Numbered from the stretch's first letter, positions 12,938 through 41,985 are shown. The stretch is DNA of 41,985 bases from Catajapyx aquilonaris (GCA_000934665.2 KZ538890.1:1-41985); one strand, 5' to 3'. A program made the numbers and translations. The notes: a model not told the origin generated them from the letters alone.

Positions 12938-13789
12938 TACTGCTCAGTAGTTTATAAAACAACCTGGTTATTGATCAATGTAAATTTAATTTTCCATGCA
13001 TATCATACTACCCAGAACACTGCAGCATGCCGATATGAAAGATCAACCATGGGGGGACCAGTATAACCAAGGAGAGCTGGCCGGCCAGTATGAAGTGGGG
13101 CAAAGTTGGTGATTTCTTCCTTCCCTTGATAATAATAATTTAATTAAGTTTTCATTTGAACAGCAATAATTCAAGAATGCCTTGTGTGGAGGGGCAAAAT
13201 GACCTGCACATTAAAAGTAAAGTATGAATGTGAACTCATGGTTATTAATAAAATTAAACCTTGGCCAGAGGGTGGGAGGAAAGTCTTGTTGAGAGTTGTG
13301 AAGGGGTAGCCTAGAGGCAGCACAACTGGCTGCTGACGAATGGGGGAGGCTGCATATAATCTCCTGTCCCCTTCGGTAGGAAATTGTAGTTTTCATCTGA
13401 CATTCTTCGCATGTAAAATGTAGGAAATATCTCACACTACACTGGCATACCTCTCCTCATACCAGCATGCCGAGATAGTGCCGAGGTGCGAACCCCTTTC
13501 TTTTCCTGAATACCACATTTATGAGAGGTAATACAGTAATATTAATACAATGTATTAGAAATGGAGAATGACTGTTACCAAATAATTGCTATTATTTGAA
13601 TGATGCTAGTGGTCTGTGTCAATGCAGATGGATCCAGTGCAAGTTAAATGTTATGCTGATATGCATTTATGATTTGAAATAATGGTTACTTTTCAATGGA
13701 AATATTCATTTCCTGTCATGTCAGTTGAACAGACTTTTTGTCTCAAGTGGTAATTTACCTTGCCATTATTGTGCTGTGATGTGTGACAC

Positions 13790-13795
13790 AATAAA
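13790..13795 (+). terminator. Candidate Pin1 polyadenylation signal AATAAA
   Basis: AATAAA followed by GT-rich sequence; the paralogous copy of this block at ~36160 reads AATGAA. Confidence 0.35.
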
Positions 13796-13912
13796 CTATT
13801 GTGAATTTGTGAGCGTGTTTAGAATTTTACAACAATTAAGTGAGACCCGGTGAAACCTGTCCATGAAGGAACATGATTTCAGGGTGTTTAAAAACTACAC
13901 AAAAAATTTTAA

Positions 13913-14838
13913 CCCCTTCGGTCCCCAGCTATACCCGCCATCGCCTAGTTTTCCACTTATCAGTACTCTGAAGATACGGACAAGATATTTTACACAAAAT
14001 AACAGCTATACTTACAAGTCCATGGAAAATACTATCAATGTGTTTGGAACAATTTTCCTCATCTAGAAGTCCCTATATTAATTTCCAAAATATTGGTGTA
14101 AAACTCGAAATTCGAGTACTTACGGCCAACGACTTGGCTCATTTAATAATGAAACACATTAAAATACACGGAATAACAACCTTGAGAATAGTGCCAGACG
14201 AATTTGATGAAATCATCACACTTTGCGCGAAATAAATGATTTCTTATCTGCTGCTTTCCTGTTACTTCGGAAATCTCCCAAATTAATTTATTTATATCGT
14301 GAAGTACTACGATTTCAGCAACTTTGTCTGGCAAGGTTCTCAAGGTTAATATTCTGCACATTTTAACATTTCATAATTAAATCAGGCAAACAGTTGGCTG
14401 CCAGTTCTCGAATTTCCAGTTGTTGTTTTTTTACAGCATATATTTGGAAATTACTTTAGGAACTTCTAGAGGAGGAAAATTGTTCCAAACAGATTCATAG
14501 ATGAATCTGTTTGGAACAATTTTCCTCCTCTAGAAGAATTTATTTTGTGAAATATATTGTCCGTATCTTCAGAGTACGTGTAAAGGAAAATCTAGTCATG
14601 GCATAAAGGTTCACCAGTAGTACTTGAATTTCAAGTTATTACTTTTGAAAATTAATTTAGGGACTTCTAGACAAGTTTCCAACACATTCATAGCATAGAG
14701 GGAGACTGTAGAACATGAACGTGTAAGTATAGCTGCTATTATTATTGGTAAAATATATTATTTATAATCTTCAGCGTACATGTAATTTTAACAGAAACGA
14801 AAATCTAGGCGATGGTGGTATAGCTGGGGCCGAAGGGG
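13913..14838. mobile_element. piggyBac-like non-autonomous element (TTAA TSD)
   Basis: TTAA|CCCCTTCGGTCCCCAGCTATACCCGCCATCGCCTAG ... CTAGGCGATGGTGGTATAGCTGGGGCCGAAGGGG|TTAA; internal inverted repeats, no transposase ORF. Confidence 0.85.
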
Positions 14839-16564
14839 TTAATGGGGGGAGGGGACACCAAGATGAATCTCTTTCATCAATTGGCGTTTCATTCTAGCTT
14901 TATTAGGTTTTTCAATCAGGCAGCCAATTTTAATTAGGACGAGGTGCAAAAGGAGCTTATCCAGGATTATATTTCCCTCCACCAAAATTTTTAGTGGTAG
15001 TTTTGTTCTTAATAATGCCAGATGAAAAGTGAAGCTCAGATTTGTCCATCTATTTGGGCATTCCAAAAATTCGCATTTCAAGTTCTGTCTTCAACAGGAG
15101 GCACAAGGAATGACAGATATATTTATTTTTCAAGCAATGGCTGATAGGGACTGACTTTTTGAGATACCAGCTGTTCACTAAAGAGATATATTTAATGAAA
15201 TCCATGATTTAGCAATCCTGGTGAAACAGGTTCAATTGGGGAAATGTTAACACAAGTACTACCTAAAGTCAGAACTTATGATAGCTGACCTATTCCAACC
15301 ATCAGGGAATGAGACTGGAGAAGTTCTCAATTCCCTCAGAAAATTTTATCAGTGCACTTTGTGATCCTTTTGTTGCTGATAACATTGCAGTTCTGCTTGC
15401 AATAATTTGAGGCTTCCAAGCACAAATGCATGCATAAGTCACAGTTACAAGTCAATATTTGATCATTGTTGATCATCTGCCTTCTGTTGTTAAAAGTATC
15501 TACTGTAGTAGGCCTAATTCAACTAGGTACAAAGTGACAGAAATGTGACTTGCAAATTGTAATTCATTTTTCAACAAGGACAGGTGAGATCACAATCATC
15601 TTTCCCTGCCTCAGATCCTGACCACAGACCAGGGCAGGCACAGATATGCCATCACAGATCTAGGGCTTGCTGTGAAGAGACCTGGAAATATCTCAGCACT
15701 GGGAGAAAAAATAATAATCCACCTGTCACATCACACTGCAGTACCTTTTATGGAAACATCAGGGCCTCCAATGGTGAGTTAGGGTTGGTAATGTTCACCT
15801 ATTGAACCAACATCGCCGCACACTAGCTGCAATACCATGCCAAACAAGGTAGCGAATCAATGCAAAAAAAAAAAAAAAAATGCATCCTTACAAAAAGGGA
15901 ATGTGGCACAACATGCAGATCCCGGCTATGAGTGGTGCAGGTGAAGGTTCCATAGCAGGTTATTGGTAAGTAACCTTGCCATTGTACAGGATAGTTTTGC
16001 ACAGAGCAACACACAACTGTTATTCAACATTTAATCCAAATGGTTCACTTTCATATCTTCAACTTACAAAGGTACAAAATGATTCTTTCAAAACTCCCAC
16101 TGACTGGAATACTAGTCTATTACAAATCAAATAAAGATGCTCCTTATGACATGTCACATTCAAGGGTATAGCTCTGGGTTATCCAGAGGTTATAGAATCT
16201 TGTGCAACATTACATACCAGGATGCTCAGTACTACACAACCCTGAAGTTATACAAGTACTCACATGAACAAAATGAAGTTATAGAGTAGCCAAGTCAGTT
16301 CCCAAGAGCTAAAGAAACCTCCATATATGAATTGCAAATGTACATTACATGATCACTTACAATCATTCTACACACTGTGTTCCAAGTATTCTGGTCACTA
16401 TAGTTATCGCTTTTGCCCCGAGTGTTACTTTTGTGTAGCTTCCTACACCCATTTCAAGGTTCCCAATTATATAGCAGCTGCTTCACTCAATCACATCTGG
16501 GAATAACATTGGGAACCTGGATTGCAGTGCAATAAGCTTCACAAAATTTACAATTTGGGTGAAA

Positions 16565-17306
16565 GGACACTGAGGCACAAAATGTATGGGCGAGTGGCCT
16601 TCCGTTCGATTTGCCTGAAAATTGGATATGTTGCAGCCCAGACCATCCTGATCAATGTTAGATAGGGACATTTCGAGGTAGGACCTACAGGGAGTGTGCT
16701 ATTGACCTCCGAAGGTCATATGGGATATGATCTGGTTTTCCGTTCGATTTGCCTGAAAATTGGATATGTTGCAGCCCAGACCATCCTGATCAATGTTGGA
16801 TAGGGACATTTTAAGGTGGGACCTACAGGGAGCATGCTAATCGCTATTCATCGAAGAGGCTACTCAATACCATAGAAGACTGTGGTGAGAGAAACCTTCC
16901 TTACATTGACCCTATGAATGTTGAAGTGCAGCTGGGTTCAGTGGGGCTTAACGTTGGCCTATTTCTGCCTCTGAGGCTCAACACCGACGCCAGGGGGTGG
17001 TCCTCCTCCTGGAAATTGCAGCTGGAGGAAACTCCAGATGACAACCTTCAAGGAGTATAATTTGAACCAGATGAATAGGTAATAACGATTAATAATTAAT
17101 TTAATGCAATAACCATTGAGTTCCTGAGACTTACTGTAGTCTACTACTCCCCCTATTACCTTCGGAGGTTATTAGCATGCTCCCTGTAGGTCCTACCTCA
17201 AAATGTCCCTATCTAACATTGATCAGGACGATCTGGGCTACAACATATCCAATTTTCAGGCAAATCGAACGGAAGGCCACTCGCGCATACATTTTGTGCC
17301 TTGTCC
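16565..17306. mobile_element. MITE with ~155-bp TIRs inserted between AAA and TTT with no TSD (Spy-like)
   Basis: GGGTGAAA|GGACAC...TGTCC|TTTGCAATAAC; the paralogous LRR-2 flank shows the empty site GGGTGAAATTTGTGATAAC (26221-26239); the left arm is partly duplicated at ~16738-16840. Confidence 0.8.
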
Positions 17307-17412
17307 TTTGCAATAACTAAAAGGACTACAATACATGGAACACATGCACAATAGGTCGATTTGTATTGCTGAAGTTTCATTCCAATGCACCACCTTATAT
17401 CACAGGTTTAAA

Positions 17413-18906
17413 TCAAAATCCAGTAAAATTTAGTGAGGATATCTTTGTATGATTAACAAAGAAATGCATATCATACTGCTCCAGCTGGTGGGACAATTCA
17501 TTGAGATAGTCAGGTAAGAGAATCAGCTTACTGCTGTACAAGTGAACTCTTTCCAAATGCTCTCCACATGAATCGAAAACTATTGGAATCACTTCTCTTT
17601 TCATGCTATTATCACACACATAGAGAGTACGCAATTCCTTCAGGTTAGCATTACAGAGAAGTTCATATACACATGATTTGACAGATGTGTTATCCACAAA
17701 AAGACACTTCAATTTGCTACAGAAGGGAATAAGATACCTCACTTGTTGCACTGGCACATTGTTAATATTCAACTCTTCTAGTGCTTGAGATCCAGCATGT
17801 GGCATTTTACATGGAAGTGAATGTCCCACGTAATCACCATACAACAGCTCAAGACACTTTAGATCGGGAAAAATTTCCCTGATTCCTGCCACATTTATAC
17901 CAGTGCAATTTTCAATGGTCAGAGACTCGAGTTTAGGGTACGACACATTCATGTTTTGTCTGAAGAGAGAATCAAGGCCAGCAACCTTTTCCAATTGTAA
18001 TTGGTGTAGACCAAACATGCATTTGTCCATCAGGAAAAGAAGATTTGAAGATGTCCCATTACATAATTTCAAGCTCTTCAGGTTAGCTAGTCCACTAATC
18101 ATATTTATGTGTGCGTTGTCAACCATGTACAGGTCCAGCTTCTCAAGGTATGGAAAATGGGTCACAACCTTTTGCAGGGTAGCTATATTTGTTGCATCCA
18201 GGTCTGCTGCAAAGTCCTTCAGCTTATAAGCATGTGTGCACAGTGGAAGAACTTCCAGGATATGGTCCATCTGCAATACTTCCAGATTGGGAAGATGGTC
18301 AAGCAGGTGTATGGCTATCTCTGGGGTCAAGGAATGAACGGAAATTTTCTTCAGGTTCTTGCACTTTGAGAGAAGCCGTAAAATGGACGGAGTGGGGCCC
18401 ATCCCATAGAGAAAATTATCTATTACTATATCTTGCAAGTTTGGACAGTTTTCAATAACTTGTGGCAAGAGCTGTCGGTTGGCATCTAATGATACCTTAA
18501 TTGATCGCAGGTTCGTCATTTTGGGGAATGGAATACCTTGTCCTTCCTTTTCGCAGGATTGCTCTAAGTTAATTTCAGGTTCAATATTGATCAGATCACT
18601 CATGACCTGAAGGCCCTTTAAGAGCTGATCAGGCGAAGAGAAAAAAACCCCATCACACTTTTCACTAATCCCTGTGCACTTGGGATGCAAAGCACTAGTA
18701 ATGTCAAAGCAATTACTCCTTCTCGAATGTAACTGAAGAACCTCGTTGACGAATTCGTTTGCAAATGTATTTGGGATGTCCTTCACATACTGTTGAATCT
18801 TTTCTTGTTGTTTTCCATCACTCTTTTCGCATGCGTCGAGTATGACGTTGGCCAAAGCATGCAAGCTTGAGGACCGAAGACTTTGAGGCTGCTTGCTCCT
18901 TGGCAT
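17413..18906 (-). CDS. LRR-1: BC-box/Cul2-box-like N-terminus + leucine-rich repeats (putative CRL2 substrate receptor), 497 aa, single coding exon
   Basis: Long ORF; SLRSSSLHAL (BC-box consensus) and IPNTFANEF (Cul2-box consensus), then repeated LxxLxL motifs (CPNLQDIVI, LPNLEVLQM, YPKLESLTI); acceptor tttttcttacag 3 nt before the ATG; two paralogues in the window. Confidence 0.88.
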   Translation of the reverse strand: MPRSKQPQSLRSSSLHALANVILDACEKSDGKQQEKIQQYVKDIPNTFANEFVNEVLQLHSRRSNCFDITSALHPKCTGISEKCDGVFFSSPDQLLKGLQVMSDLINIEPEINLEQSCEKEGQGIPFPKMTNLRSIKVSLDANRQLLPQVIENCPNLQDIVIDNFLYGMGPTPSILRLLSKCKNLKKISVHSLTPEIAIHLLDHLPNLEVLQMDHILEVLPLCTHAYKLKDFAADLDATNIATLQKVVTHFPYLEKLDLYMVDNAHINMISGLANLKSLKLCNGTSSNLLFLMDKCMFGLHQLQLEKVAGLDSLFRQNMNVSYPKLESLTIENCTGINVAGIREIFPDLKCLELLYGDYVGHSLPCKMPHAGSQALEELNINNVPVQQVRYLIPFCSKLKCLFVDNTSVKSCVYELLCNANLKELRTLYVCDNSMKREVIPIVFDSCGEHLERVHLYSSKLILLPDYLNELSHQLEQYDMHFFVNHTKISSLNFTGF

Positions 18907-19143
18907 GTTCTGTAAGAAAAATGAAATGTCTCACTACAAAATACTCATGTACGAAAATAATTACATGTGACTGATGAAGCAAAATGCGAGGGCGAATCAA
19001 GAAGCAATTCACACTTTTTTTAAAAATTCTGAAGCCTCATTATGGAAACTGAAACTGACATACAGTATTGGAAGGGCAAGTCCTTCTCTCCTTTTTGACA
19101 TACCATACACAGTGATGCACTTATGGCACCAGGACACTACTAC

Positions 19144-19386
19144 CTCAACCTGTTGGATGGTGCGGACCGGGAAGATCAAGTGTGACTGGCGGGTGTGCTA
19201 GGACCAGTGGGGATGGCGTCTGGTGCTGGTTTGGACGTTATCCGGACGATCTGGGCCCACAGGGGGAAGGAGATTGTTCCGACGGGCAGAATGATGTTCC
19301 ACGAGACGAGTCTTCACCTCCTGCTTGAGTCGGCCATCTTGCCAGTCACGTGACGCGAACACCAACTGGCACCAGTGTTGCCAATG
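19144..19386 (-). promoter_or_regulatory. Promoter and non-coding leader exon of LRR-1
   Basis: GC-rich island with GTCACGTGAC E-box palindrome (19345-19354) next to YY1-type CAAGATGGCCG; candidate donor GAG|GTAGTA near 19143; intron ends at the acceptor at 18910-18911. Confidence 0.55.
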
Positions 19387-20141
19387 ACAAAAATAATAAT
19401 TCAGAACGACATTTACCTTATTTACGCTACCTGCAATATGATTTTAATTTTGAACCACGTGGTCACTCACTACTGGGATTTATTTAAATCCACAGGGCTA
19501 CATTCTCGATTGGTGGTGGCATCCATGCAAAGAAGGCTCGCGGGACATTCGATCGTCGCTATGATCTGAACAGGGCATGAACTTCATTGCAGCACATGTT
19601 TTCTCATGAGTGCCTTTAGGTACAGTAGTGCTCACAGTTCAAATATGTTGTGAAATGTTTTCTGCTTTCCAATCACCCCCCCCCCCTCCAGTATTCTCTG
19701 CCTTCCTATAAGTGGCAAAGGAAGTTGAATATACCGTAATCAAAGGCAGCATATTTTCCATCTGAGGGCGAGACATGGTCTCTAATAGACGAGGTGAGGG
19801 GGAAATTGGTATGTTTTATCAGGAGTAAAAATACACAGGGCCTTACTGAAGTTTTCCTGGACCGGCCTTTCCAGTCTGTTATGACCTGAAGTGTTATTTA
19901 CGAGTAAGTTGCAGAGGTTTCGGCAGCACAAGGTGCCATCCATCCAGAAGGATTTGACGGGTGCGGTCATCACATTTCGAACTTACACCCTTCAACTGGT
20001 GTACAGCTTCAAACTCTTGCCAACTAATTTTTGGCCCTGCACTTTGACCATGCCCTGCAGGAAAATGAACATGTGCAACAATATTAATTTTATTCTACAT
20101 ACAATATGCGTGGGGTGGAACTGCTTCTCCTATTGCATTTA

Positions 20142-21218
20142 CAAGGGCATGCTGATAATTTTTGCTTCCATTGCACAGAGAACTAAATACATGCCATAGC
20201 TCATCAGACAATGAGGAGGGTGACATCAAATGAAAGCCTGAAATGTCCTCTTCAAAACCACATATAGGCTAGAGTTGAATCTGGATGTAACTGACTTAAT
20301 CAAGGGACCGAGGAAAACAGTATGTTATAACCAATCTCTGTTATAGCCAAATAGCCACTTTCGCAATGAATACACAAGTTTTCTGCTATCATACGCTTAT
20401 AATGCACGCTACTGCTTACTGATTACGAAACTATCCACAAACGCGCAAAATTAGCTCCCTGGGACTTAGGCAGGACCAAAAAAAATCTGCCATCTCGTTC
20501 TTGCCAAATATACCATAAAAATAATGATTTTGACCTTTTCAGCAAGTGTTAGATCAGTGACAGATGCGAAAATCACCCCAGCTCCAGTATGCAGTGCTTT
20601 CCTCGCATGGGAAATTAAGCGGAGTAATCAAAAACAGCATATTTGTCCAATAAATAGTATGTTATACACGAGGTGAGGTAAAATAAGTGCTACATATCAG
20701 GAGTCAAAATACATAGGGCCTTATGGAAGAATGGCGGGACTGGCCTTTCAAGTCCGTTATAGCCGAGGCTGTTATGCAACTGTACTTTACTTTTCTAAAT
20801 CTCACATTCACAGTTTTGCGACCCGTCATGAACTCGACATGCATGACACCTTCTCCCGAGACTCAAATTCCCTGCACTTCTCATCCACCATATACAGCCC
20901 AGATCTTGAGTCCTGCGACTTTTTTCTTTCTCCAAAAATGAAGACACACATGAAAGGAAATCGGTGCAGTGCCAATGCAGAAGTTGAGGCTGCTGTTCGC
21001 ACTTGTCACGGCTCCCCAAGCCCAGAGTTGTCCGCCGACTGGAGGAAAAAACTTGTACATCGGTGGTGCAAGTGCTGGTGCTGGTGCCTATGTAGAAAAG
21101 TCAATATATGGTTTTGAATAGGTCATTTCAGCCATTCATTTGATGTCACCCTCATTGTCCTGTGACATGTATTTAAAATTCGATGTGCAGGTAGGCAAAA
21201 ATTATTAGCATGCCCTCG
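20142..21218 (+). mobile_element. Degenerate mariner (DD34D-type) element
   Basis: TA-flanked imperfect TIRs (CAAGGGCATGCTGATAATTTTTGC / GCAAAAATTATTAGCATGCCCTCG); transposase C-terminal remnant HPP/YSPDLESCDFFLSPKMKTHMKGNR...KKLVHRWCKC at ~20880-21095. Confidence 0.85.
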
Positions 21219-21278
21219 TAGCTTCACTCACTGCTCCACACTGCTCTATCTGAAAGTGACGGTATTATTTTGCTTAGT

Positions 21279-21388
21279 TTTTTTTTTTTAAATACCACAT
21301 GATCAATCCAGAGGCCATCTTAGGGTCAGGTAGAACACCGCCATATTTTCATTCAATTTTCGTATTTTTTCTTCAAACTTCGCGCAAA
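21279..21388 (-). mobile_element. Short poly(A)-tailed retroposed insertion with 15-bp TSD
   Basis: ATTATTTTGCTTAGT at 21264-21278 and 21389-21403, with a poly-T run at the left end (poly-A on the minus strand). Confidence 0.7.
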
Positions 21389-22217
21389 ATTATTTTGCTT
21401 AGTATTGGTTCTATACCATCGACACTGGTGTAAGATGAGGTCATGAGGTCAGCTTCGCACAAAACTTGGCAAAACATCAAGCAACTATTCACTGCAATTT
21501 ATTACACAAAATACATAAATGCAAAATATCACATTTTCACGATTCTTCTCCATATTTATTAATTTGGCATGATTCACCAAATACAGTGCATTAAAAAGTA
21601 TAATATGACCTGTTGGCAGTAACTGCTGATCATCTACCTTCCATTGTTGAGAGTATAAAGTGATTCAATTTGGTATACTGCATGGCACAGAAATAACATT
21701 ATTTTAATAAATTTGTCAGAAATCCAATTTCAAACCCAACCAATGAGTAATCAAACGAAGATCTTATGCCAATTGATGGGGTAGTGTGGATCGTTCTTTC
21801 CCACATGTTTTCAAGTGTATTTTTTGCACAACTCCCCACTTTAGTGACAATTTAATCAGGCCTAACATATTCTAATGGAATGGCATCGGCAACAATTCAC
21901 TTCATCTGATAAATTTAAAGCAATTTTTGCAACCACAGATATTATGATATTAAGTGGAATTGTTTCTAATCAATGAAGTATAAAACTTCATTCAAAGGCA
22001 GCTAACAAAAAAAGTTTGCCATTGCCCACATCACTCCCTGACCACCCCCTCAATCTATTAGGTACGAATTGTTTCTCAAAAAAGGGACACGGACCTATCA
22101 CACAACTTGATGCTTTGCTTCCTTAAAAATACATGACTACATCAGTCTTTCAATCCCCTTCCCTCTCACCCATATGAACACAATCTTCATAATTATTCAG
22201 GTCAAACTGTGAACATT

Positions 22218-22859
22218 TCACAATCGCTTCAGACTTCGTTTCTTGTCCTTTGTACTTTTCTTCTTGTCAGCACCATTCTTCTCTCCTAGGACGTTCTTTT
22301 CCCCAGCAAGCTTCTTAGCCACAGGCCCATCTCGAGTGGCTAAAACAGATGCTGCACCCTCACTTTTTGAACTCTTGGTTGACTGAGCATGAATCTCAGT
22401 CATCATCTTCGCACGTTGGACGTAGTCATCGTAATGGTCCAGGAGTAGCTTGCCGGCCTCCTCATTCAAGGCAGATTCCGGGTTGGGCACAATGAGAAGG
22501 CATCTTATGGTCAGTAGGACATTCCTGATGCCAAACTCAGGCTTCCAGTCCTTCTTCAAAACATTGACACAAATCTCACCATTTTTGGCCACATTGGGAT
22601 GGAAAAGTTTCGTCACAAACAGGCCCTTGGGTGGTGAGAGCGGAAAGTCCTTGCTAAGCACCAGTTTGACTCGGAATATACCACCGGCATATGGGGTGTC
22701 AGCAGGTCCTTCGATTGAAGCTTGGATGTCGCTGATGTCCTCATCGTTGACGTGGACTCGGATCCCTTCGAGTGGATTATTCTTCAGATCACTCACCTCT
22801 TTTGCCACCTGGCGTATGACCATTGGGGAAAGGTTTTCCATGTTGGAGGAGGCACTCAT
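22218..22859 (-). CDS. UBE2S: Ubiquitin-conjugating enzyme E2 S (K11-chain E2), intronless CDS, ~213 aa
   Basis: [22 protein letters not shown]...[17 protein letters not shown]...[20 protein letters not shown]...[16 protein letters not shown] and the characteristic basic C-terminal tail DKKRSLKRL; candidate acceptor tcctgcag at 22940-22941; an alternative in-frame ATG lies at 22871. Confidence 0.95.
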
Positions 22860-23091
22860 ACTTTGGTGCATCAAGGTCACAGCTGCCCTGAATGAGTCTC
22901 CAGGCACGAAATCCGGAAAAAGGTGGTTGAGTTCGAGACCTGCAGGAGTATGGTGCCAACGTCGGAGACTCCAGATAGAGAAACCAACTGCCATGTGGCA
23001 CAGAAATTAGACTTGCAATTCATGTTTCAACTTGGAGATGCGTCAAATGTGAAATAACAAATAATTCCCGTCCATGCTAATTTCAGTGAAC

Positions 23092-24125
23092 GGGTGATTC
23101 CAGGTGAGATCAGATAAAATAAAATCAGATGTCCACACTGCATTTTTTTTAAATTCTGAAATTTGGCATACAGAAACGTTATGTTCACATGTGATTGTGT
23201 GAATTTTTTCAACCCGCTAGCATCCATAGGTCGCTTCAGGGTAGCCAACCCGCCTCCTGGGCGAAAAAGGGCGTGGCACCATATCTGAATTTGAAGAGTA
23301 TGCTCTCAGGGACATTTGTACCAAATTTCATGCTTTTTTCACCAAATTCATGGTTGAATCCCTTAACCTCCGGACTATAATAGGAAACGAGGCGTAACTT
23401 CAGTCTGAGTGTGAATGAAATCAGTAACTTGTTATTTTCGTAGTGTTTCCCCCACTTTACAGGCTAGAAAGGTCAAAGGTCATGCAATTTGCAAAAAGAG
23501 ACGTCATTAACAAGCCAAATTCATTATAGACCAGATGGCACAATCTCCGTAGTACCACAATGAAGCTTTATTCATTTTGAAAATGTTTATTATGTTCATG
23601 AATACTGAAATACTGAAAGCTTATTGTAACGAAAATATCAACTTTTCACCCTTCCTCCTCCAGATTTAATTCATATCTCCGTAACTACGCCCGACACAAA
23701 ATCGAAATTTTCGGGAACATATAGAACACGGATGGATGATCATGTGAATATTTTTCACATATTTTTGTGACCTCATAGGGTCGAAAGGTCAAAGGTCAAA
23801 TATTTTGACCTCAAAAAATGAGAGGTCACATTTTTCGTAAAAATTCATTTTTGGTGCAGGAATATTGGGCAAACCTTCCAGAATTGAAATTCACTTCAAT
23901 GATGTCAGTGGTGCCAATAGTTGCCGAAATATGGCGGTTGACGTGATGGTCAAATTTTAGCACATGCAAATTTTCACATGGTCATTTCTCGTGACCTATG
24001 GATGCTAGCGGGTTGAAAAAATTCACACAATCACATGTGAACATAACGTTTCTGTATGCCAAATTTCAGAATTTAAAAAAAAATGCAGGGTGGACATCGC
24101 TATCTGATCTCACCTGGAATCACCC
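23092..24125. mobile_element. MITE with ~135-bp TIRs and 4-bp TSD GAAC (Sola2-like by termini)
   Basis: GAAC|GGGTGATTCCAGGTGAGATCAGATA ... TATCTGATCTCACCTGGAATCACCC|GAAC; near-identical arms; the superfamily assignment is tentative. Confidence 0.85.
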
Positions 24126-24609
24126 GAACGTAATATAGCCTAATATTAGAAACCCAAATAACATGCTATGAAATAATAGTGCAACTTGTGGAATACAGGT
24201 CACATAACAAAATAGGTCATAAGAAAATTATTTCCTATTTTGCTATAGTCCACAGAGCTTGCCACAGAGTGTGACATGTCATGTCTGTGGCATGTCCCAA
24301 CACTCACTTTTGTAGTACTGTAAATTTTTATGCATTCAGTGCATAAAATGCTTATTTAATTTTTTAATCAGAGTAGTGGAGCAAGAAATACTTAGAAAGG
24401 CTAATGCATTTTTTGTATTGATTTTAGAGAAAGAGGAATTTTGTCCCAAATCACATCAGTGCAGTGGGCAGAAACAAAAACTGCTCAGTCCTGGTACGGT
24501 CAGCCCAAAGCCCCACAGCCACACCAACACAAGGGCTCCATCCATCTCCCTATTGCCTCCATATCCATAGGTATATTAATAAGCAGTAACAACCAGAACT
24601 AGCTGTAGC

Positions 24610-28345: not shown

Positions 28346-28780
28346 CACAACGACGAGAGCAGTGGGCTCCCGATGGCGTCCGGTCGGCTTCCCGGGTTTT
28401 CCTTCCCTCCTTTGGAGATGTGCAGCTCTCGTGCCCACCAAGTCACACAGCCCAAAGTTTGTTGCTGCGGGTCACTGGGCCTGGTGGTGGGAAGGTCGGA
28501 GGTTCCTTGCCCCGTGTTTGGAGTGTGCAGGCAGACGGTGTGGAGGCCCGGCAAAGGGCCCGAAAGGAACAGAAGGAGAAGAAGAGTTGTTGTTCTTCCG
28601 AGAATGTTGGTTGTTCCATCCACGCTGCCAACCGGCTCTGGGCTCTCCTTCAGTCTAGGTTGTAGGCATATCATATAGTACTAATGCTACTTGGACATAC
28701 CGGCCACTAGGAGGACCGACTTCCCGTGCGCCATCTGTCTTTCGATGATGTATTGCCTCACCTGATTCAATTGTTGCCGC
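28346..28780 (-). promoter_or_regulatory. GC-rich promoter/leader exon upstream of LRR-2
   Basis: CpG-rich island; plus-strand GCCATCT...TTGCCTCACCTGA...TGTTGCC loosely resembles the LRR-1 promoter; candidate donor GTG|GTACGT at 28345. Confidence 0.45.
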
Positions 28781-29509
28781 GAAATGGAGTTGACCGCAAC
28801 CATGACTGCAACTATGCCTGACGTTATCGCGACTACCTACCGGTTGGGAAATATTGGTTCACCAGTGTAGAGTACATTCAAGTTTTTACTGAATACAAAA
28901 TAAATCTCTAGGTCTAGGAGAAAGAGGAGTGATATTATTTAAGAGTGGAAATGCCAAAGGCGCTAACTTGTAATTGCCAGAAAATTAGAAATTCAGATTC
29001 TGAGGGCAAAATGCTCTCTGTGTACTGCCTAGTCCCGTGCAGGTGGCTCATAGTTCCAAAAATTCAGTCGTGGTACTGTACTGAAGGTATCCCACAGATA
29101 ATGTTAGCTATATGTGCGCATGGTCATCTCATTCGAAAAAATTCAATTATGTCCCTTCAAGATTTTTGGCAATTTTTACAGCCTTTGGCATGTCCATTTT
29201 TAAATTAAATCTGTTTACTGCCAATGTAAATGTCAATCATCAGGCAGAAGTCATCATCAACAACATCATCGTCATCATTATCAACCTTCATGGACACACT
29301 AATAAGAAACACTAAAAATACATCTTTCAAATTTTTCATGTTATAAATATTTTTTCAGGTATACAATGTGTATACCTGAAAGAGGTACTATGTATACAAT
29401 ACATTCTGCCCATCGCTGCACATAAACTTGACAAAGGATTTTTTTTTTCTTCACATACAGGACGTTCCTGTTGTCATCTACCTTCTGCTGTTGAAATTTC
29501 GAAGTCAAT

Positions 29510-30042
29510 GGGTGGAATTTTTGTCCCACTGCTATATACAGGGTGGTCCAACTTTTTTTGTCCGAACAGCTATTGACAAATTCGGCCTAAGCTGCTTATG
29601 TTGTAGTGCGTTACCCGGCAACCCCGGCCGGCGGGCCAATTCAAACATCAGCACATGGAGACGAGTGCTAAGTGTTCTTTCCATTGTCATTGTCTTGTTC
29701 TTAGTAACATCATTATTTTCTCTGCTTATCCCTTGCTACTGATGTGTAAGCAGGCAGAGACCCGTCGCTGGGTCGTCCGCGTCACTCACTCGATTTGTAA
29801 ACAGTGGCAACAATGGAAGCGCTCTCCATGGGCTGATGTTTGAATTGGCCCGCCGGACAGGGTTGCCGGGTAACGCACTACAACATAAGCAGCTTAGGCC
29901 GAATTTGTCAATAGCTGTTCAGACAAAAAAGTTGGACCACCCAGTATAGTTACCGCAAACTTAGCAGTGCCATCCCTAACACTGGTACTGCTAGCTAAGT
30001 TAGCAGTAACTAGCAGTAGGTTGAAAAATTGAAAATTCACCC
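29510..30042. mobile_element. Small palindromic MITE (GGGTGGAATTT termini) interrupted by a Tc1/mariner MITE
   Basis: Same family as the copies at 32154-32260 and 39025-39137; the two halves lie at 29510-29534 and ~29947-30042. Confidence 0.7.
29539..29944. mobile_element. Tc1/mariner-type MITE with ~120-bp TIRs, TA-flanked
   Basis: TA|CAGGGTGGTCCAACTTTTTTTGTCCGAACAGCTATTGACAAATTCGGCC... with the reverse complement ending ...GTTGGACCACCCAG|TA. Confidence 0.88.
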
Positions 30043-30876: not shown

Positions 30877-31320
30877 CAGGGTGAAGGGGAACTCGCGGAC
30901 AATCGCCAGGTAGACTGATAGTACTCGTAAAACTAATATAGGGACATGCAATTAGTTTTGGGCACCATTGCATAGTTAACACGTACGGCACTTTCAAAGT
31001 TTCATGACATCACATCTGCTCCTCCAGTTCCAAAGAAGCATAAGTCAGCTTGAGGGCCTCCGAATAATCTGGCCTTGGTCACCTAACGCATCGTCCATGT
31101 GCAATAGATGATCAAATCCCGCCAGAGTAAGAATCTGGGTACGACACCCATGCACTTTGTCCTTTTTACCTAATATTTTAGCATCCGGCCCTCTACACTT
31201 AGTAGCCGCCGTACGCATTAACTACGCAACAGAGCCAAAAACTAATTGACCATCCCTATATTAGTTTTACGAGTACTATCAGTCTACCTGGAGATTGTCC
31301 GTGAGTTTCCCTTCACCCTG
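30877..31320. mobile_element. Tc1/mariner-type MITE with ~85-bp TIRs, 62 nt downstream of the SGT1 stop
   Basis: TA|CAGGGTGAAGGGGAACTCGCGGACAATC...GATTGTCCGTGAGTTTCCCTTCACCCTG|TA. Confidence 0.88.
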
Positions 31321-31382
31321 TATAGCCACCTGGGCATACTTCCAGCAGCGAACGCACAAGTGTCTCACAGTCACTCCCCAGC

Positions 31383-33882
31383 TTACTGCTCCCACTTCTT
31401 CCATTCCATTCCTTCGGGTGGCTTGACCTCGATCTTGTCCTTCTTCACTTCACCCCAGTTGGTGCTTAGGACGGTTCCCCCAGACTCCACAAAGCTCTTG
31501 TTCATTGCTCTCTGGACCTCCTCACTACCATCAAGGTAGATCTTCTGGAAAAGCTGATTCAAAGCAGCATCCCCATCCAGCTTCTCCTCTTCTTCCTCTT
31601 TTTTCAACTGTCTCTCCAGCTTGTTCCAGTCTTTCTTCTTGGCAGCCCCCTCCTCCAGCTTCTTTTCCACCTCCAGGTTGGGCCACATCATGGCATCAGC
31701 CTTGGCCAAGCGAAGTTCCAGCTTCACTTTCCCCACTTTGAAAGAGCTCAACTCTGGTCTGATGCGTTGGGCTAGGGACAGTTCCAGGGTGTACTCAGCT
31801 GTTGGAGCATTAACAAACACGGAGTGGGGGCGAAACTCAACCTGAAAAATGGTCGCAACAGGTTTCAAGATATGCTATTACGAGACAATGACACCAGAGT
31901 TTGCAAACAAAGTTAAGTACTAATTCGTTCAAAAAGATGATGATGATATTGCAAAATTGTTTCCATCTTTTCGAGCGATATAGCGCAACCATGAGCACAA
32001 TGATGGAGAGCAACTTGGTGAGAAGCTCTGAGTTATGTCGAAATCAGGCAATGTCCATGCTCCAATGCAAATACACTGTACTCTCAATTATTCAGGTGCA
32101 GATTATTCGTGAATCGCCAAAAAATCAAATGAAAAGGTAAATTCTGAAAAAATGGGTCGAATTTTCATCCCACTGCTAGATGCTGCTAACTTAGCAGTAC
32201 CAGTGCCAACACTGGTATTCTAAGTTAGCAGTAACTAGCAGAGAGACGAAAATTCCACCCACTGTCAATATGTCTTGCCAAAAAATATATATAGCAGACT
32301 TTTTCTAGAAGACAAATAAAAATCTATGGTAAGTTTATTATTTTTGCTTCAATCAAGCAGATTACACTTTGTTCAGTAGTACATTAAAAACCTGTTAATA
32401 TCACATTCTTACAGTGTCTAGGACCATTTCTTCATTATGTGTTTTCCGATTGCCTGGCGACACCTGTGCAGTCATTAGCCCGGATAATCGGGAGTACCGT
32501 ATATACAGCATCAGATGCCATGATCTAGAAGCATACATCTGCATGGAGATCAAACCGCACCAATTTCAACAACTTAAAATATGTGCATTTCTGAAACCTG
32601 ATGTTAATGTGAAATGGCTTATACGTAATAAAGTGCCGTAAAATGGGTACTTCCTGCAATGGCTTCTGTGCAGCAGATAGAACTTACGACCCTTCCGTTA
32701 ACAGAAGCCTACCTTACCAACTCATAGAGAATGAAAATCCCTTTCAGTCGTGCACACCACGTGCATGTTTTAACCTGATCTTCTGGTACTCCAAGTAACA
32801 GCACTTGGAACAAAAATGCAACCAAACGATGATTGAAAATTGGCACATTTCACACCCTGTAGTTTTGCAACCACCAGTCGCAGAGAATAACAAAATTGGG
32901 GACATAGATCCATGAATGGGTACAACAATAACCTCCAATATGGTCAACTTCAGAGAAGGTCATGGCAAAGGGTGGCTCCCTTTGAAGTGGAATGCCCCCA
33001 TACTTACAATGATCGCCTACAACCGCTCTACCATTCCCCAAGCTTAGTTCTCGGACCAGGTAGGCAACACTGCATAACTCGTGACGTAAGGGGCCAATTA
33101 GGTGGGGCCATCTCTCAAATGGTTCCTACAGCCCTAGGGAACATGTGTGCCCAGTGGCACCTTCTTATCACAAAGTGCAGAGTTAAAATCCTTAGGGCCT
33201 GGACTACATGAACTAATTATCTTTATCACATAAAAAATCAATCTCAATTTGTTTTGACTCGCCTTCGTAGGTAGAAACTCATGATTTTTCTAATGAGAGC
33301 GAAAAGAAAAAGCCAAACAGAAACCATATTACTTTGCAGGGGAAACTGGACATCCAACAAAAAAACTCCACATAGTGTTCATAAGCTTCACACATCAATA
33401 GATCTGTTGTACACACAATTTGAAAATCATTACTTTACATTTCAACCACGTTAGATTTAAAAGTGATTATAACAATTATAAATGAAACTCACCTTCACTT
33501 GATCAGGTGGCAGGTTCCTAGCCAATATGGTCACACACACTTCTGAAGTAGTCTGGTACCAGTCATGCCTGATCTTGGGCTTGGCTTGACCTTCGACCTC
33601 AGGAGCCAAGGCCCCAGGAGGCAGAGCTGTGGCTGCCTGCCCTCCAGCTCCTTGAGCCACAGCATTGCAAGTCCCATCAACCTGCTTTCCAGCTGTCTGA
33701 GCCGCAGCACCCAAATCACCTTCATTATGTTCTCCAGATTCCTGAGCCCCAGCAAACTTACCACCATCAACGTATGTTCCACTTGCCTGTGACTCAGCTT
33801 GCGTAGCCTCAGAATCAGGCCCTCCTGTTGCTTGAGCCCCAGCCGAGGCTTCAGGTAATTGTTCCTTCTTCTCAGTCGACAT
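31383..33882 (-). CDS. SUGT1: SGT1/SUGT1 homologue (CS + SGS domains; no TPR exons found in the window); exons 33911/33882-33493 and 31841-31383; ~282 aa if started at ATG 33882
   Basis: KIRHDWYQTTSEVCVTIL (CS start); AAG|GTGAGT donor at 33492; acceptor tttttcag|GTT at 31842; SGS domain GDAALNQLFQKIY...AMNKSFVESGGTVLSTNW...PPEGMEWKKW*. The start codon is uncertain because the exon opens at acceptor ggtttcag|GA (33911). Confidence 0.9.
32154..32260. mobile_element. Small palindromic MITE (~107 bp) in the SGT1 intron
   Basis: GGGTCGAATTTTCATCCCACTGCTAG...CTAGCAGAGAGACGAAAATTCCACCC; flanks AAT/ACT. Confidence 0.75.
33040..33206. mobile_element. Solo right end of the TAGTCCGG-terminated foldback family
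   Basis: Similar to 35690-35841, ends CTTAGGGCCTGGACTA. Confidence 0.7.
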
Positions 33883-34012
33883 TATCCACTGGTCAAACCA
33901 CCTTTCTTCTCCTGAAACCAAATCATTCAATGCTGACATTACATCTGGGCGGTCTAACAAGTATGGAACTTTACAGAAATTATGCTTATTAACCCTTTGT
34001 GGCCTACGATAG

Positions 34013-34160
34013 AATTATCGTGGCATTAGTTTGTTAAGTGTACCAGGAAAAGTGTATGCCAAGGTTTTGATGAGGATTTGTCAGGATACAACGCAACCCA
34101 AGTATAGAAGGCGGACGCCTGCCTCATTCTATGACAGAACGACATTGTTGTTGTTGTGGT
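34013..34160 (+). mobile_element. RTE/CR1-like LINE fragment (reverse transcriptase motif)
   Basis: 34013-34078 translates to NYRGISLLSVPGKVYAKVLMRI, a typical non-LTR RT motif; (TTG)n run at ~34145-34158. Confidence 0.75.
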
Positions 34161-34583
34161 ATTGTTACCATGTGGTTACTATGGTTACTAAGATTTTGAA
34201 GTGCTTGTGGTGAGTCAAGCCCCCTTGTTCTCGGATAGAACAACACGTCTGAGGCACCAAGTGAACGGGCAAAATATGTTGCTTTCTAGTCACTCTACCA
34301 TTCCTCAAAATACACGCACCTATTTCTGTTACACCCTGTATAATGATTTCTATTGAACTTGACATTTTTGGTAGAACAGCCCCCTTCAGCAGTGAGCAAC
34401 TGACCCAAAAAGTACCCTTACCACTACAGAAGTGCCTGAGATTTAGTTGTGCCGGGATGAACAGTACGTTCAACTGCTCCGTGGAAGGCCATGAGCTACA
34501 ATATTATATCTAGCCATGATCATGTCTGGGTGCGTTCTAGTGTGACTGCACCTCATCATCCCCACCGCCGGTAGCCCACTCAC

Positions 34584-35050
34584 CAGTCGACTATCTTCCC
34601 TGTCATCCACACCAGCTGGAAGGGACAAAAGGTTCGGCCACGCCAGTCGCTGGTCTCCTTTTCTCCACCTCTTCAGACGATCTCCCTGCAAACAAGAAGA
34701 GCGTTACAACAAGAAGGGAACCTGCAAATGCACGCGTCTCAGTTTGGAATGGCGTCCCGTAGGCCTCCATTTTTAAGGACGGATCTCACACCGCAACAAT
34801 GAGAGAGCAAATGCGAAGCCATTCCAGACTCTTACGAAGCTCAGATTTACCACCGTAAGTACCGCGCGAAGCAGGGCGCGAGGTTGAGTCCAGGGAAGAA
34901 GAATCCAGAGGGGACTAGGATCGTCCCTGCAGCCGCTGGGATCAGTCGCTCGACTTCTTTGTCTCGCAGCAACCAACACGTTCTCCTCCCGTTCACCTTC
35001 TGCAATCCGCCATCTTGCCAATCACGTGACGGGAAGCAGCGTTGCCAATG
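34584..35050 (-). promoter_or_regulatory. Promoter and non-coding leader exon(s) upstream of SGT1, homologous to the LRR-1 promoter
   Basis: GCCATCTTGCCAATCACGTGACGGGAA (35009-35035) matches 19333-19359 at 25/27; leader exon 34685-34584 is bounded by ttgtttgcag and |GTGAGT. Confidence 0.6.
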
Positions 35051-35224
35051 CAAGTTATTAATCACATTTAAGCCTCACTTCCAGTCTCAAACACTTGTAA
35101 TAATTAATCCTCCGCGTGATTATTAATTAGTGACACGTTTCCAAATAAACAAGGGGACGTTCTCTGCTCGTGTTATGCGCATCGGAGGAGGCGGGACATT
35201 CCAGTATTCGTTTCGGTTCATTTT

Positions 35225-35841
35225 TAGTCCGGGCCCTAAGCGCAAAAATCAGGCCTAACCTTGCATTTCGGGATAAGAAGGTGCCACTTGGCACATATGT
35301 TTCTTAGGCCTATAGGAGCAATTCCAGAGTTGCAGGCAACTGATCGGCCCCATAGGTCACGAGTTATGCGGTGTTGCCAACCTGATCAGGGAACTAAGCG
35401 TTTCAACTCGGCACTTTGTGATGAGAAGGTGCCACTTGGCAGACATGTTCCCTAGGTGTATAGGATTAGGATCCATTTGAGAGATGGCGGCACTTGATCC
35501 GCTCCTTAGGTCAGGAGTTATGCGGTGTTGCCAACCTGGTCCGGAACCTAAGCATAACCGCATAACTCGTGATCTAAGGGGCAGATCAGGTGCCACCAAC
35601 TCTCAAATGGAACCTCTAGGCCTGGGGAACATTCTTGCCAAAATCCCAAAATGCAAAGTTAAAAATGATACAAAACGCTTAGGTCCAGGACCAGGTTGGC
35701 AACACCGCATAACTCATGACCTAAGGGGTCGATCAGTTGCCTGCAACTCTGGAATTGCTCCTATAGGCCTAAGGAACATATGTGCCAAGTGGCACCTTCT
35801 TATCCCAAAATGCAAGGTTAAGACGCTTAGGGCCCGGACTA
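35225..35841. mobile_element. Foldback MITE with TAGTCCGGGCCCTAAG termini and ~150-bp internal subrepeats (Academ-like termini)
   Basis: Two direct units followed by two inverted units; terminal TAGTCCGG...CCGGACTA; TSD not exact. Confidence 0.8.

Positions 35842-35953: not shown

Positions 35954-36018
<65 letters not shown>
35954..36018. repeat. (TTA)n microsatellite, ~21 units
   Basis: Perfect TAT/TTA run. Confidence 0.95.
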
Positions 36019-36020
<2 letters not shown>

Positions 36021-39000: not shown

Positions 39001-39024
39001 GTATTTTGAACTCATACATACATT

Positions 39025-39137
39025 GGGTGTAATTTTCGTCCCACTGCTAGTCACTGCTAACCCAGCAGTACCAGTGCCAATGCTGGTGCTGCTAAGTCAG
39101 CAGTAACTAGTCTCAGCAAGGAACTAAAGTGCCACCC
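39025..39137. mobile_element. Small palindromic MITE with 3-bp TSD ATT
   Basis: ATT|GGGTGTAATTTTCGTCCCACTGCTAG...CCACCC|ATT; third copy of the family. Confidence 0.75.
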
Positions 39138-39757
39138 ATTGTTTACAAATGAATTCTGCTTCTTTTCCTTAGATTTTTCTTTCCTGAAAGTATCCACACT
39201 AAGCAGCAATCACAGCAGTGCAAACACAGGGCATTCTGTCAATTAATTGGTTTAAAGTTTCAGCCCTAATTAGAGTCCACTTCTCTTGTAGCAACTCCCA
39301 GAGATTATTTTGGCTCATTTATACTTGCATCAGTTGCATGTCTCAAATAGGCCTGTACAGATGATGATCCCAAAGGATTTCAACTGGATTAGATGTTGGA
39401 ACCAAACACCTCAAACTTAGATTTGTCTGTGATAAGAACCTTCTTCTACTGAGTAGTGGCGCAAGTCCGGTACTGTGTAGCCAATAAGAGGCTATTCTCT
39501 TTATTACTGGGCCTAAGGCTCTGATCAGTGGTTTTCAGTCTGCAAAAAACTAGCTTCTTTTGTTCATTAGTTCCCAAATAAATGACTATTCACGTGGTGT
39601 ATTGAAATTAATGAGCGGTATTGAGCAAGATCACTGAAATCACACTACAGTCGACTCCAGATAGAGCTGTCAAGGGACCACAGCAATCAGTATCCCATGT
39701 AACCATGGTCTTAGAAGAATAGGTCGGGACACTCGCCGCAATCTTGCGTGCCATTAA

Positions 39758-39982
39758 CCCTTCCCGCATTGGCGCTAGTATATCTGGAATGGAATCATGC
39801 TGTGGAAGTCGCTGCATATAGCAACTGGCAACCCTGACGGTACAACTCTGCATTAACACCTAGCTACTGATAGCGATACACCAAGATGCAGAGTTGTACC
39901 GTCAGGGTCACTAGTCGCTATGATGCAGCCAGTTCCATAGCGTTATTTTATTGCAGATATACTAGCGTCAATGCGGGAAGAG
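39758..39982. mobile_element. piggyBac-like MITE
   Basis: TTAA|CCCTTCCCGCATTGGCGCTAGTATATCTG ... CAGATATACTAGCGTCAATGCGGGAAGAG|ATAA; ~95-bp imperfect arms. Confidence 0.75.
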
Positions 39983-40240
39983 ATAACGGCACAGCTATTT
40001 ATATTGGCCTGGGATAGAAGTGTCAGGTGGCGGCACGTAACCAAGGTTCCTTATATCCAAATGCACGGGCCACGTATGGAAGTGTGCTGGGACTGACCTT
40101 TTGAGTTGGCTATAACTGAGGGGGTCGCCTTTAGCTAAGGCTCTTACATCTGGAGTTGATTGTATAATGCTCCATTTATATTGTGGCACTAACTTTCTTT
40201 ACACTTCACGTCTTATTTTCTCTAGTAACTAGCCATAATT

Positions 40241-41735
40241 TCAATCAGCATAATGATCATGACTAAAATCATAATTGACAGAGACTCTCATATCATATTG
40301 CTGCAGCTGATTGGACAATTCATGAGCATAGTTGGGTGAAAGAATCAGCTCATCTCCATGCAATTCAACAATTTCCAAATAATCTCCACATGAATCCAAA
40401 ATGATTGGAATCACATCCTCTTTCATGCTGTTGTCACGCAACTTCAGTGTACGCAACTCCTTCAAGTTGGCATTACACAGAAGTTCATAAACATTGGATT
40501 TTACACATGTGTGACTGACATGAAGATACTTCAATTTGCCACAGAAGGGAATGAGATACCTCATGTGTGGCACCGACACATTGACAATAATCAACACTTC
40601 TAGAGCTTGAAATCCAGTATTTGTCACTTCACATGGAAGATCATGTTTCATGTGCAGTGTAATTGTTGTCAAATAGTTTAAGAGACTTTAGATTAGGGAA
40701 AATCTCCCTTATTCCTGCCACATTGACACCAGTACAATCAGAAATGAGCAGAGACTCAAGTTTTGGGCATGAGACATTCACATTTTGCCTTAAGAGAGAG
40801 TCAAGGTCAGTAATATCATACAAGAATAGTTCTTGGAGTCCAAATAAACACTTGTCCATCAGGAAAAGAAGGTTTGAAGCATTCCCATAATATAATGTCA
40901 AGCACTTCAGGTGTTCCAGTTCACTAATCAAGTGAGCATGTGAACTGTTAACCCTGATCAGGGTCAGCTTCTCAAGGTCTGGAAAATGAGCTACAACATT
41001 TTGCACAGAAGCAGCATCACTTGCATCCAGGCCTGAAACAAAGTCCTTCAACTTATATGTACACTTGCACATTGGAAGGACTCCTGTGAGACATTTCCTC
41101 TCCATTTGCAATATTTCCAGATTGGGAAGATTGTCAAGCAGGTGTATGGCTACCTCAGGAGTCATGAAACCACCAATAAATCTGTTCAGGTACTTGCACT
41201 TTGAGAGCAGTATTAGTGCGGATGTAGTGGAATCCACTCGTAAGGAATCATAAGATATTGAAATATCTTCCAAGCGTGGGCAGTTTTCAATAACTTGCTG
41301 CAAGAGCAGTGGTTGGTTCTTTAACGAAACCTTAATGGAGCGCAAGTTGGTCAGTTTGGGGAATTGAAAATCTTCCCATACCTTGTTCTGGGGTAGCCAT
41401 AAATTAAGAGTAGATTCCATATTGATCAGATCACTCATGACATGAAGACTGCGTAATTTCTGGACAGACGAAATATAAAATGCCCCAGAACCCTTTCCGC
41501 TCATCACTGTGCATTTGGGATGAAAAGCACTAGTAAAGTCAAAGCGTTCTCTTTTCTTTGAACCCATCCTAAAGACCTCATCAACATATTCGTTTGCAAA
41601 TGTATTTGGAATGTCCTGCACATATCGTTGAATCTCTTGTTGTTGTTTGGCCTTTGCACATGAGTCTACTACGAGCTTGGCCACGGCATGCAGACTTGAG
41701 GACCTGAGACTTTGAGGCTGCTTTCTTCTTGGCAT
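40241..41735 (-). pseudogene. LRR-3: third BC-box/LRR paralogue broken by a 7-bp duplication frameshift at 40641-40653
   Basis: MPRRKQPQSLRSSSLHAV...IPNTFANEY; the frame ends ...YTAHET* and homology resumes in another frame (HDLPCEV...ANLKELRTL...QQYDMR); TCATGT-T-TCATGT at the break; acceptor ttctggcag 3 nt before the ATG. Confidence 0.85.
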
Positions 41736-41985
41736 GATCTGCCAGAAGAAAGAAAATAATGCTTTAGTATCCATGTCTGATAATAATTACATGGGACCTG
41801 TCAAGCAGCATTTCTTGTCACATTTTATCAGTACTCTTTTGAGAAAAATTGATGAAACTGTTGATTTTTGGTAGAACATCCCCCTTCAGCAATTGATGCA
41901 GACATGCCTGCTTCCGCCCAGGCAGCCAGCTTTGAGAAATAGTGTAGGGGTGTAGCAGGGCCGCATTAAGGTTTTTTGCGCCCCA

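Follow-up and report, generated by a model that had tools for sequence, protein, structure and literature searches.

The window analyzed here is a 41,985-nt stretch of Catajapyx aquilonaris DNA (GCA_000934665.2 KZ538890.1:1-41985), and all coordinates refer to the whole of it. Its minus strand carries five genes between 13.5 and 42 kb, LRR-1, UBE2S, LRR-2, SGT1-like, and LRR-3. A first-pass annotation had described five co-oriented minus-strand units in this order, and our open reading frame (ORF) and Pfam calls bear it out. We read the locus as a lineage-specific tandem array of LRR genes in which a truncated SGT1 paralogue probably sits behind an LRR-type promoter, through capture of a promoter or 5′ exon, with UBE2S as an independent neighbor. 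We give this reading a probability of roughly 55%.

The capture part of this reading draws on the following elements.

19313-19420, minus strand: LRR-1 upstream module, with a CCAAT-like 14-mer (19373-19386), an E-box/CCAAT/AAGATGGC 27-mer (19333-19359), and a GT donor at 19317.
34992-35070, minus strand: SGT1-like upstream module, with the 14-mer (35037-35050), the 27-mer (35009-35035), an ATG at 35011-35013, and a GT donor at 34996.
34364-34391, minus strand: SGT1-like copy of the 28-nt element, located in that gene's putative first intron and matching its counterpart upstream of LRR-3 at 27/28 positions.
41864-41891, minus strand: LRR-3 copy of the 28-nt element, 102 to 129 nt upstream of the ATG.

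LRR-1 and SGT1-like have in common a promoter/first-exon block of ∼50 to 100 nt. The 5′ matches claimed in the first-pass annotation were recovered: the 13/14 block (19373-19386 versus 35037-35050) and the 25/27 block (19333-19359 versus 35009-35035) letter for letter, and the 28-nt block linking the SGT1-like intron to LRR-3 (34364-34391 versus 41864-41891) at 27/28. In both the LRR-1 and SGT1-like copies, an AG/GTGAA donor follows the 25/27 block after 15 to 20 nt. The core of the 27-mer occurs exactly twice in the window at ≤3 mismatches, versus 0 expected from 100 shuffles. To gauge significance, each non-LRR flank was compared with the LRR flanks against 200 dinucleotide-preserving shuffles. 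The 5′ region of SGT1-like scored 29 and 26 against LRR 5′ regions; the shuffle maximum was 18, and 0/200 shuffles reached either score. Since neutral sequence among the LRR genes has decayed to ∼65 to 70% identity, islands at 93 to 96% imply constraint or conversion, and, standing in DNA that otherwise does not align, they resemble conserved cis-elements or patches of conversion.

The module lies ∼430 nt upstream of LRR-1, and the SGT1-like exon begins ∼1 kb downstream of its own ∼100-nt module. When 34997 is joined to 34003 (acceptor at 34005-34004), the ATG of the block is, as judged by eye, in frame with the SGT1 ORF. We infer that the shared block is a putative promoter plus first exon; the direction of capture, the splicing of exon 1 to 34003, and any coexpression of the genes are likewise predictions. 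Given that SGT1-like combines the shared block, the GT donor, and the 28-nt element, an unrelated coding region may plausibly have come to use an LRR expression context in the case of this gene, and of this gene only. In the simplest and most likely history, a truncated SGT1 copy reached an LRR unit's 5′ intron by landing there or by duplication; that unit was perhaps the original 5′ region of LRR-2, and the copy would now be transcribed from an LRR-type promoter and first exon. In a variant of this scenario, a fourth LRR unit would have lost its LRR exon, of which no relics were found. New gene copies that recruit the promoter or untranslated 5′ exon of a neighbor are a familiar concept for retrogenes and chimeric genes. 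Like them, SGT1-like is a truncated housekeeping copy, and the 5′ module in front of it has a homologue in the neighboring gene family.

Two coding exons were assigned to SGT1-like.

33493-34003, minus strand: upstream coding exon (exon A), with a vestige of the TPR end, then a low-complexity linker, then the first part of the CS domain; donor AAG/GTGAGT.
31386-31841, minus strand: last coding exon, with the second half of the CS domain and the SGS domain; acceptor tttttcag, stop codon at 31383-31385.

The SGS domain (PF05002) is matched over profile positions 1 to 82 of 82 at an E value of 6.9e-35. The CS domain is split by an intron; its N-terminal half matches CS structures of human and plant SGT1, and its C-terminal half matches 1rl1 at an E value of 5e-6. 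The top named matches of the last exon are decapod SGT1 proteins, at 49 to 55% identity. Thus SGS and both CS halves are recognized as in SGT1/SUGT1 proteins, which have the order TPR-CS-SGS, but unlike them the window gene has no TPR domain. Pfam found no TPR family and none appeared among the solved-chain matches, exon A yielding the CS domain only; the ∼145 residues that precede the CS domain are not TPR and are mostly low-complexity linker. Because 12/12 canonical SGT1 queries in tblastn match only the two CS/SGS exons, with no TPR-coding DNA found in the 42-kb window, we conclude from these alignments that SGT1-like is a 5′-truncated, TPR-less SGT1 paralogue. A literature search of limited extent returned no description of a TPR-less animal SGT1. 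In SGT1, the TPR domain binds Skp1. Unlike processed retrogenes, the SGT1-like copy retains one GT-AG intron, inside the CS domain, and neither a poly(A) tail nor a target-site duplication was seen; for these reasons, a partial duplication at the DNA level is as likely as retroposition.

Sequencing run X5, of unspecified kind, contains pieces of LRR-1, UBE2S, LRR-2, and SGT1-like; stretches that it leaves uncovered are uninformative. One X5 contig of 1,147 nt (record 16) is 87% identical (36 differences in 281 nt) to 33491-33771 on the minus strand and ends at the exon boundary, its piece stopping at 33491 as that of a spliced form presumably would. Another X5 contig of equal depth includes, among the matches listed, a piece that starts at ∼31840, the start of the next exon. 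At 33491-33771, the DNA run X1 contains only the version in the window. The 87%-identical contig points to another gene of the SGT1-like type or to a highly divergent allele, and the X5 pieces would be consistent with a spliced transcript of such a paralogue or divergent allele.

The tandem array itself consists of three LRR genes, listed here with the candidate 5′ exon of LRR-2.

17416-18906, minus strand: LRR-1 coding exon, 497 amino acids, called as an ORF; acceptor ending in cttacag, 3 nt before the ATG.
26280-27755, minus strand: LRR-2 coding exon, 492 amino acids, called as an ORF; acceptor ending in cttgcag, 3 nt before the ATG.
40244-41762, minus strand: LRR-3 coding exon, frameshifted, called as an ORF; acceptor ending in ctggcag, 3 nt before the ATG.
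28700-28900, minus strand: candidate LRR-2 5′ exon and promoter, with a CCAAT box, a stretch starting ATGGCG, and donor CCG/GTATGT; the shared block is absent.

LRR-1, LRR-2, and LRR-3 are tandemly duplicated paralogues. Their coding sequences (CDS) are pairwise 74 to 79% identical in DNA and 57 to 65% in protein, with dS values of 0.35 to 0.54 and dN/dS ratios of 0.52 to 0.78 between paralogue pairs, and their 3′ flanks show collinear, decayed homology of 63 to 77% identity that extends over 1 to 3.7 kb. Compared with LRR-1 and LRR-2, LRR-3 has a 7-nt insertion near 40650-40690 that shifts the frame, which beyond this point stays open for ∼137 codons; the insertion marks a very recent pseudogene, an allele, or an assembly error. 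All three genes have a splice acceptor 3 nt 5′ of the ATG (18907-18910, 27756-27759, and 41763-41766, minus strand), a position conserved despite unalignable introns, and because of it each LRR gene needs an upstream noncoding exon. The candidate for LRR-2 has a good donor at ∼28700-28735. Next to it, the GC-rich stretch 28150-28680 (minus strand), also upstream of LRR-2, has several frames open on both strands and no Pfam match, and is possibly a CpG-island-like promoter region. In a lineage with spliced leaders, the LRR acceptors could be trans-splice sites. Spliced-leader trans-splicing or an operon was considered and dropped, though acceptors so near the ATG are suggestive.

UBE2S lies between LRR-1 and LRR-2.

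22221-22859, minus strand: UBE2S, an intronless CDS of 213 amino acids with its ATG at 22859 and its stop codon at 22218-22220, identified by Pfam and solved relatives.

The predicted protein has the UBC fold with the catalytic cysteine (Pfam UQ_con, E value of 1.6e-39), and the alignment with human UBE2S covers residues 1 to 151 and with them the stretch that contains the Cys. Its six best solved relatives are all UBE2S (E values of 8e-67 to 2e-65), the next E2 following at 2.8e-30. The database holds 1,770 relatives at E ≤ 1e-30, the best 70 to 72% identical and from arthropods and molluscs where named; no database match of either UBE2S or SGT1-like exceeds 72% identity. UBE2S (E2-EPF) is a K11-specific E2 that works with the anaphase-promoting complex/cyclosome (APC/C). 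The C terminus encoded in the window is a basic, Lys-rich tail ending in L-K-R-L, which may be equivalent to the APC/C-docking tail motif of the human protein. In fold and identity the gene is UBE2S-like; it differs from the general description of UBE2S in having an intronless CDS. We dropped the idea of a proven retrogene, as no hallmarks, such as a poly(A) tract, were seen. The 5′ region of UBE2S scored 15 against LRR 5′ regions, which 26/200 shuffles reached and which is not significant. By these comparisons, the gene looks like an ordinary, intact UBE2S and an independent neighbor.

At the 3′ side, three genes are followed by a similar motif.

15467-15499, minus strand: 3′ motif, LRR-1 copy, ∼1.9 kb past the stop codon.
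21624-21656, minus strand: 3′ motif, UBE2S copy, 27/33 identical to the LRR-1 copy, ∼570 nt past the stop codon.
29469-29496, minus strand: 3′ motif, SGT1-like copy, 25/29 identical to the LRR-1 copy, adjoining a repeat terminus at 29506-29534.

The 27/33 block earlier claimed for 15467-15499 and 21624-21656 holds in its letters, and its significance is marginal (score of 21, reached by 2/200 shuffles). The 25/29 block of SGT1-like scored 19, the 95th percentile of shuffles. Because the SGT1-like and UBE2S blocks fall on the same 33 nt of LRR-1, a three-way motif of ∼27 nt common to LRR-1, UBE2S, and SGT1-like is likely, albeit on weak support. A search at ≤3 mismatches located no copy in the flanks of LRR-2 or LRR-3. 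The series of collinear 3′ blocks previously proposed between SGT1-like and LRR-1 was not recovered: the other match, 30919-30975 versus 14637-14698, scored 16, which is noise level, and stands in the wrong order. The two best matches of the SGT1-like 3′ flank are transposon-like repeats that also occur in the LRR-3 flank.

Several points weigh against capture of an LRR-type promoter by SGT1-like. The ATG of the block is out of frame with the LRR ORF in LRR-1 if the first donor is used, and the in-frame join of 34997 to 34003 had a 1-in-3 chance. The block is composed of generic-looking promoter motifs, which we take to be CCAAT, a palindromic E-box, and AAGATGGCG. LRR-2 lacks the block, with a best 5′ score of 15 that is noise level and no copy near its ATG, and has its own candidate 5′ exon. 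Because of this, and because the promoter of LRR-3 would lie outside the window, the term LRR-type promoter refers to LRR-1 plus one intron element. Capture leaves the three-way 3′ motif unexplained. The transcription start and the use of exon 1 are predictions from sequence. Finally, the blocks may be old, diverged dispersed repeats.

The last point bears on the alternative of a chance neighborhood, under which the blocks represent either core-promoter motifs of a generic kind or pieces of old dispersed repeats, and SGT1-like and UBE2S merely occupy spacers of the LRR tandem array. Six inverted-repeat (foldback/MITE-like [miniature inverted-repeat transposable element]) elements, with arms 70 to 95% identical, were annotated.

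13937-14602: inverted-repeat element.
16562-17309: inverted-repeat element.
23091-24126: inverted-repeat element.
29535-29948: inverted-repeat element.
35225-35841: inverted-repeat element.
39748-39992: inverted-repeat element.

Inverted-repeat and high-copy elements fill the window, the blocks are only 23 to 47 nt long and bordered by unalignable DNA, the SGT1-like 3′ motif stands 10 nt from a repeat terminus, and the motif content presumably resembles common transcription-factor sites, all of which a chance neighborhood would explain. However, 22/23 contiguous identity that includes the bases between motifs, accompanied by the 13/14 block and the conserved donor in matching order, exceeds what motif convergence would give; no other upstream region of the window has the pattern, and none of the 200 shuffles reached the score. 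Sequencing depth also speaks to this alternative, for several of the copies, among them the SGT1-like copy of the 28-nt element, lie in contigs of X1, a DNA run of the same organism, at single-copy depth. The LRR-1 module is in a contig spanning 18804-19707 with a mean depth of 24.6, the single-copy level; the SGT1-like module is in 34011-35253 (35.4), the UBE2S 3′ motif in 21144-22589 (38.9), and the SGT1-like 3′ motif in 27903-29563 (29.5). Several inverted-repeat elements lie in X1 bins of very high k-mer depth, and repeat-rich bins reach depths of 6,900 to 15,000 versus 24.6 to 38.9 in the contigs with the blocks, which in this respect resemble other unique parts. This depth argues against young high-copy repeats and has no bearing on old, diverged ones. 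We consider a chance neighborhood unlikely.

Less likely again is an arrangement in which LRR-2 has a 5′ intron that encloses SGT1-like. The block at 35009-35050 would then be the ancestral LRR-2 promoter, with the two mRNAs arising by alternative splicing or polyadenylation. As nesting would have it, LRR-2 requires an upstream exon, 27756-28900 is free of any P-type block, and the whole of SGT1-like is contained, in the same orientation, in the interval from the block to the LRR-2 exon. Yet LRR-2 has a plausible separate 5′ exon with a donor, described above, and the intron would have to span 7.2 kb and take in a polyadenylated gene.

It is also conceivable, although improbable, that the LRR family, as lineage-specific cullin-ligase-like receptors, has a private TPR-less SGT1 co-chaperone under the family's promoter. 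This paralogue would retain the HSP90-binding CS domain and the LRR-binding SGS domain and would be produced along with the receptors, the 3′ motif tying UBE2S to a shared posttranscriptional control.

The least probable reading is that of the first-pass annotation, in which a single expression cassette (promoter, 5′ intron, and 3′ region) gave rise to the five units by copying and received different coding regions, with coregulation of receptor, E2, and co-chaperone: the units are indeed co-oriented and alternating, SGT1-like has 5′ blocks in common with LRR-1 and LRR-3, and one ∼27-nt 3′ motif lies downstream of LRR-1, UBE2S, and SGT1-like, but the UBE2S 5′ region is unrelated, LRR-2 has no promoter block, the 3′ motif does not, at ≤3 mismatches, extend to LRR-2 and LRR-3, and the non-LRR units lack the collinear 3′ homology that the LRR units share with one another. 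Of the cassette, the 5′ module of SGT1-like stands, and 3′ sharing comes down to that one motif. A payload swap is not shown, because LRR coding relics are absent from the UBE2S and SGT1-like units (tblastn, E < 0.3). An operon-like arrangement, which had also been proposed, does not fit the spacers: these are long, 3.3 to 6.2 kb from CDS to CDS, and occupied by inverted-repeat and high-copy elements, the former also enlarging the 3′ region of LRR-1.

We then considered the proteins encoded by the LRR genes. The AlphaFold2 (AF2) model of LRR-1 (predicted local distance difference test [pLDDT] score of 73) begins with three helices and continues as an LRR solenoid, and the C-terminal LRR domain is recognized by Pfam LRR families at E values down to 1.2e-9. 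The nearest structures of the model are FBXL2 (Z score of 20.3), RNase inhibitor, and plant F-box LRR proteins; the root mean square deviation (rmsd) from FBXL2 is 4.2 across 313 residues, D3 is aligned to model residues 1 to 494, and the many LRR proteins matched by the solenoid include Rad7-Elc1. FBXL-type F-box LRR proteins (FBXL2, FBXL17, TIR1, and D3/MAX2) are thus the best whole-model structural matches, but the match is mainly to the LRR solenoid and, unlike them, the window LRR proteins have no detected F-box. Pfam found no F-box, SOCS box, or VHL box in the N-terminal 90 residues of the three paralogues and five relatives at E values up to 10; LRR families are all that it detected in the LRR proteins. 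Folded alone, the N-terminal 100 residues gave a model (pLDDT of 70) with no clear structural counterpart (best Z score of 6.5, generic helical), for which Foldseek returned no match at E ≤ 0.001 and among whose structural matches no SOCS/VHL-box or F-box protein stood out; a chain of cullin-RING ligase 2 (CRL2) with ZYG11B came only at rank 47 (Z score of 4.8).

By eye, residues 9 to 23 contain a BC-box-like string, S-L-x3-[S/A/C]-x3-[L/V/I], and residues 44 to 52 a Cul2-box-like string, I-P-x2-F-x3-F; we assume the BC-box and Cul2-box consensus sequences behind these labels. The strings are conserved in 3/3 paralogues and partly in four distant relatives. A word-indexed protein search with the LRR protein gave 0 matches at E ≤ 0.001 among 7,769 candidates, and a search of solved chains gave none at E ≤ 1. 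A profile search of 1.84 billion representatives returned 44 matches at E ≤ 0.001 (best, 1.1e-12), only 4 of which (P0003, P0009, P0019, and P0022) have the N-terminal MPRxKxPxSL-type start. With short N-terminal helices followed by an RNase-inhibitor/FBXL-like solenoid, and with tandemly duplicated, fast-evolving genes (dN/dS of 0.5 to 0.8), the LRR proteins resemble PRAME-family/LRR-1-type Elongin-BC (CRL2/CRL5) receptors; unlike in these, the sequence has no similarity to any solved chain and the N terminus has no Pfam family. The PRAME-family member Pramel15 has a comparable architecture (PMC11344788). A role of the LRR proteins as cullin-ligase receptors is plausible and unproven. The predicted complex of LRR-1 with the last SGT1-like exon scored 0.01, which is no evidence either way. 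A correspondence of the window to a vertebrate PRAME locus was dropped, the top matches of UBE2S and SGT1-like being from arthropods/crustaceans at 50 to 72% identity.

If the promoter sharing is real and functional, the locus would offer a clean case in animals of a client-specific SGT1 derivative that has lost the TPR domain and is coregulated with a young, fast-evolving LRR family, a parallel to the reliance of LRR receptors in plants and animals on SGT1-HSP90. It would also show neatly how a new gene can gain expression by taking over a neighbor's 5′ module. For now, what is seen is for the most part a well-documented tandem gene family beside two unrelated genes, and the link to the ubiquitin pathway may be fortuitous, spotted only in hindsight. 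A TPR-less SGT1 and an LRR family under a common promoter would make a modestly interesting hypothesis. Our literature search, limited in extent, returned no description of an LRR/UBE2S/SGT1 cluster.

The window as a whole is eukaryotic, with a GC content of ∼42% and abundant inverted-repeat elements. Rfam and tRNA scans gave 0 matches, a Pfam scan of 15 other long ORFs in the window gave 0 families, and a metagenome scan gave one weak locus (L001, 29% identity). Between UBE2S and the LRR-1 promoter lies an element of ∼1.1 kb (20140-21220) with terminal inverted repeats that are 78% identical; its 146-amino-acid ORF (20677-21117) has no Pfam match. A 19-N assembly gap (9691-9709) falls within a GC-rich stretch that looks proline coding (9272-9865). 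Just downstream of the LRR-1 unit, on the opposite strand, are two exons of a PIN1-type prolyl isomerase (11588-12182, plus strand), with WW (E value of 1.5e-5) and Rotamase (E value of 2e-21) domains recognized by Pfam.

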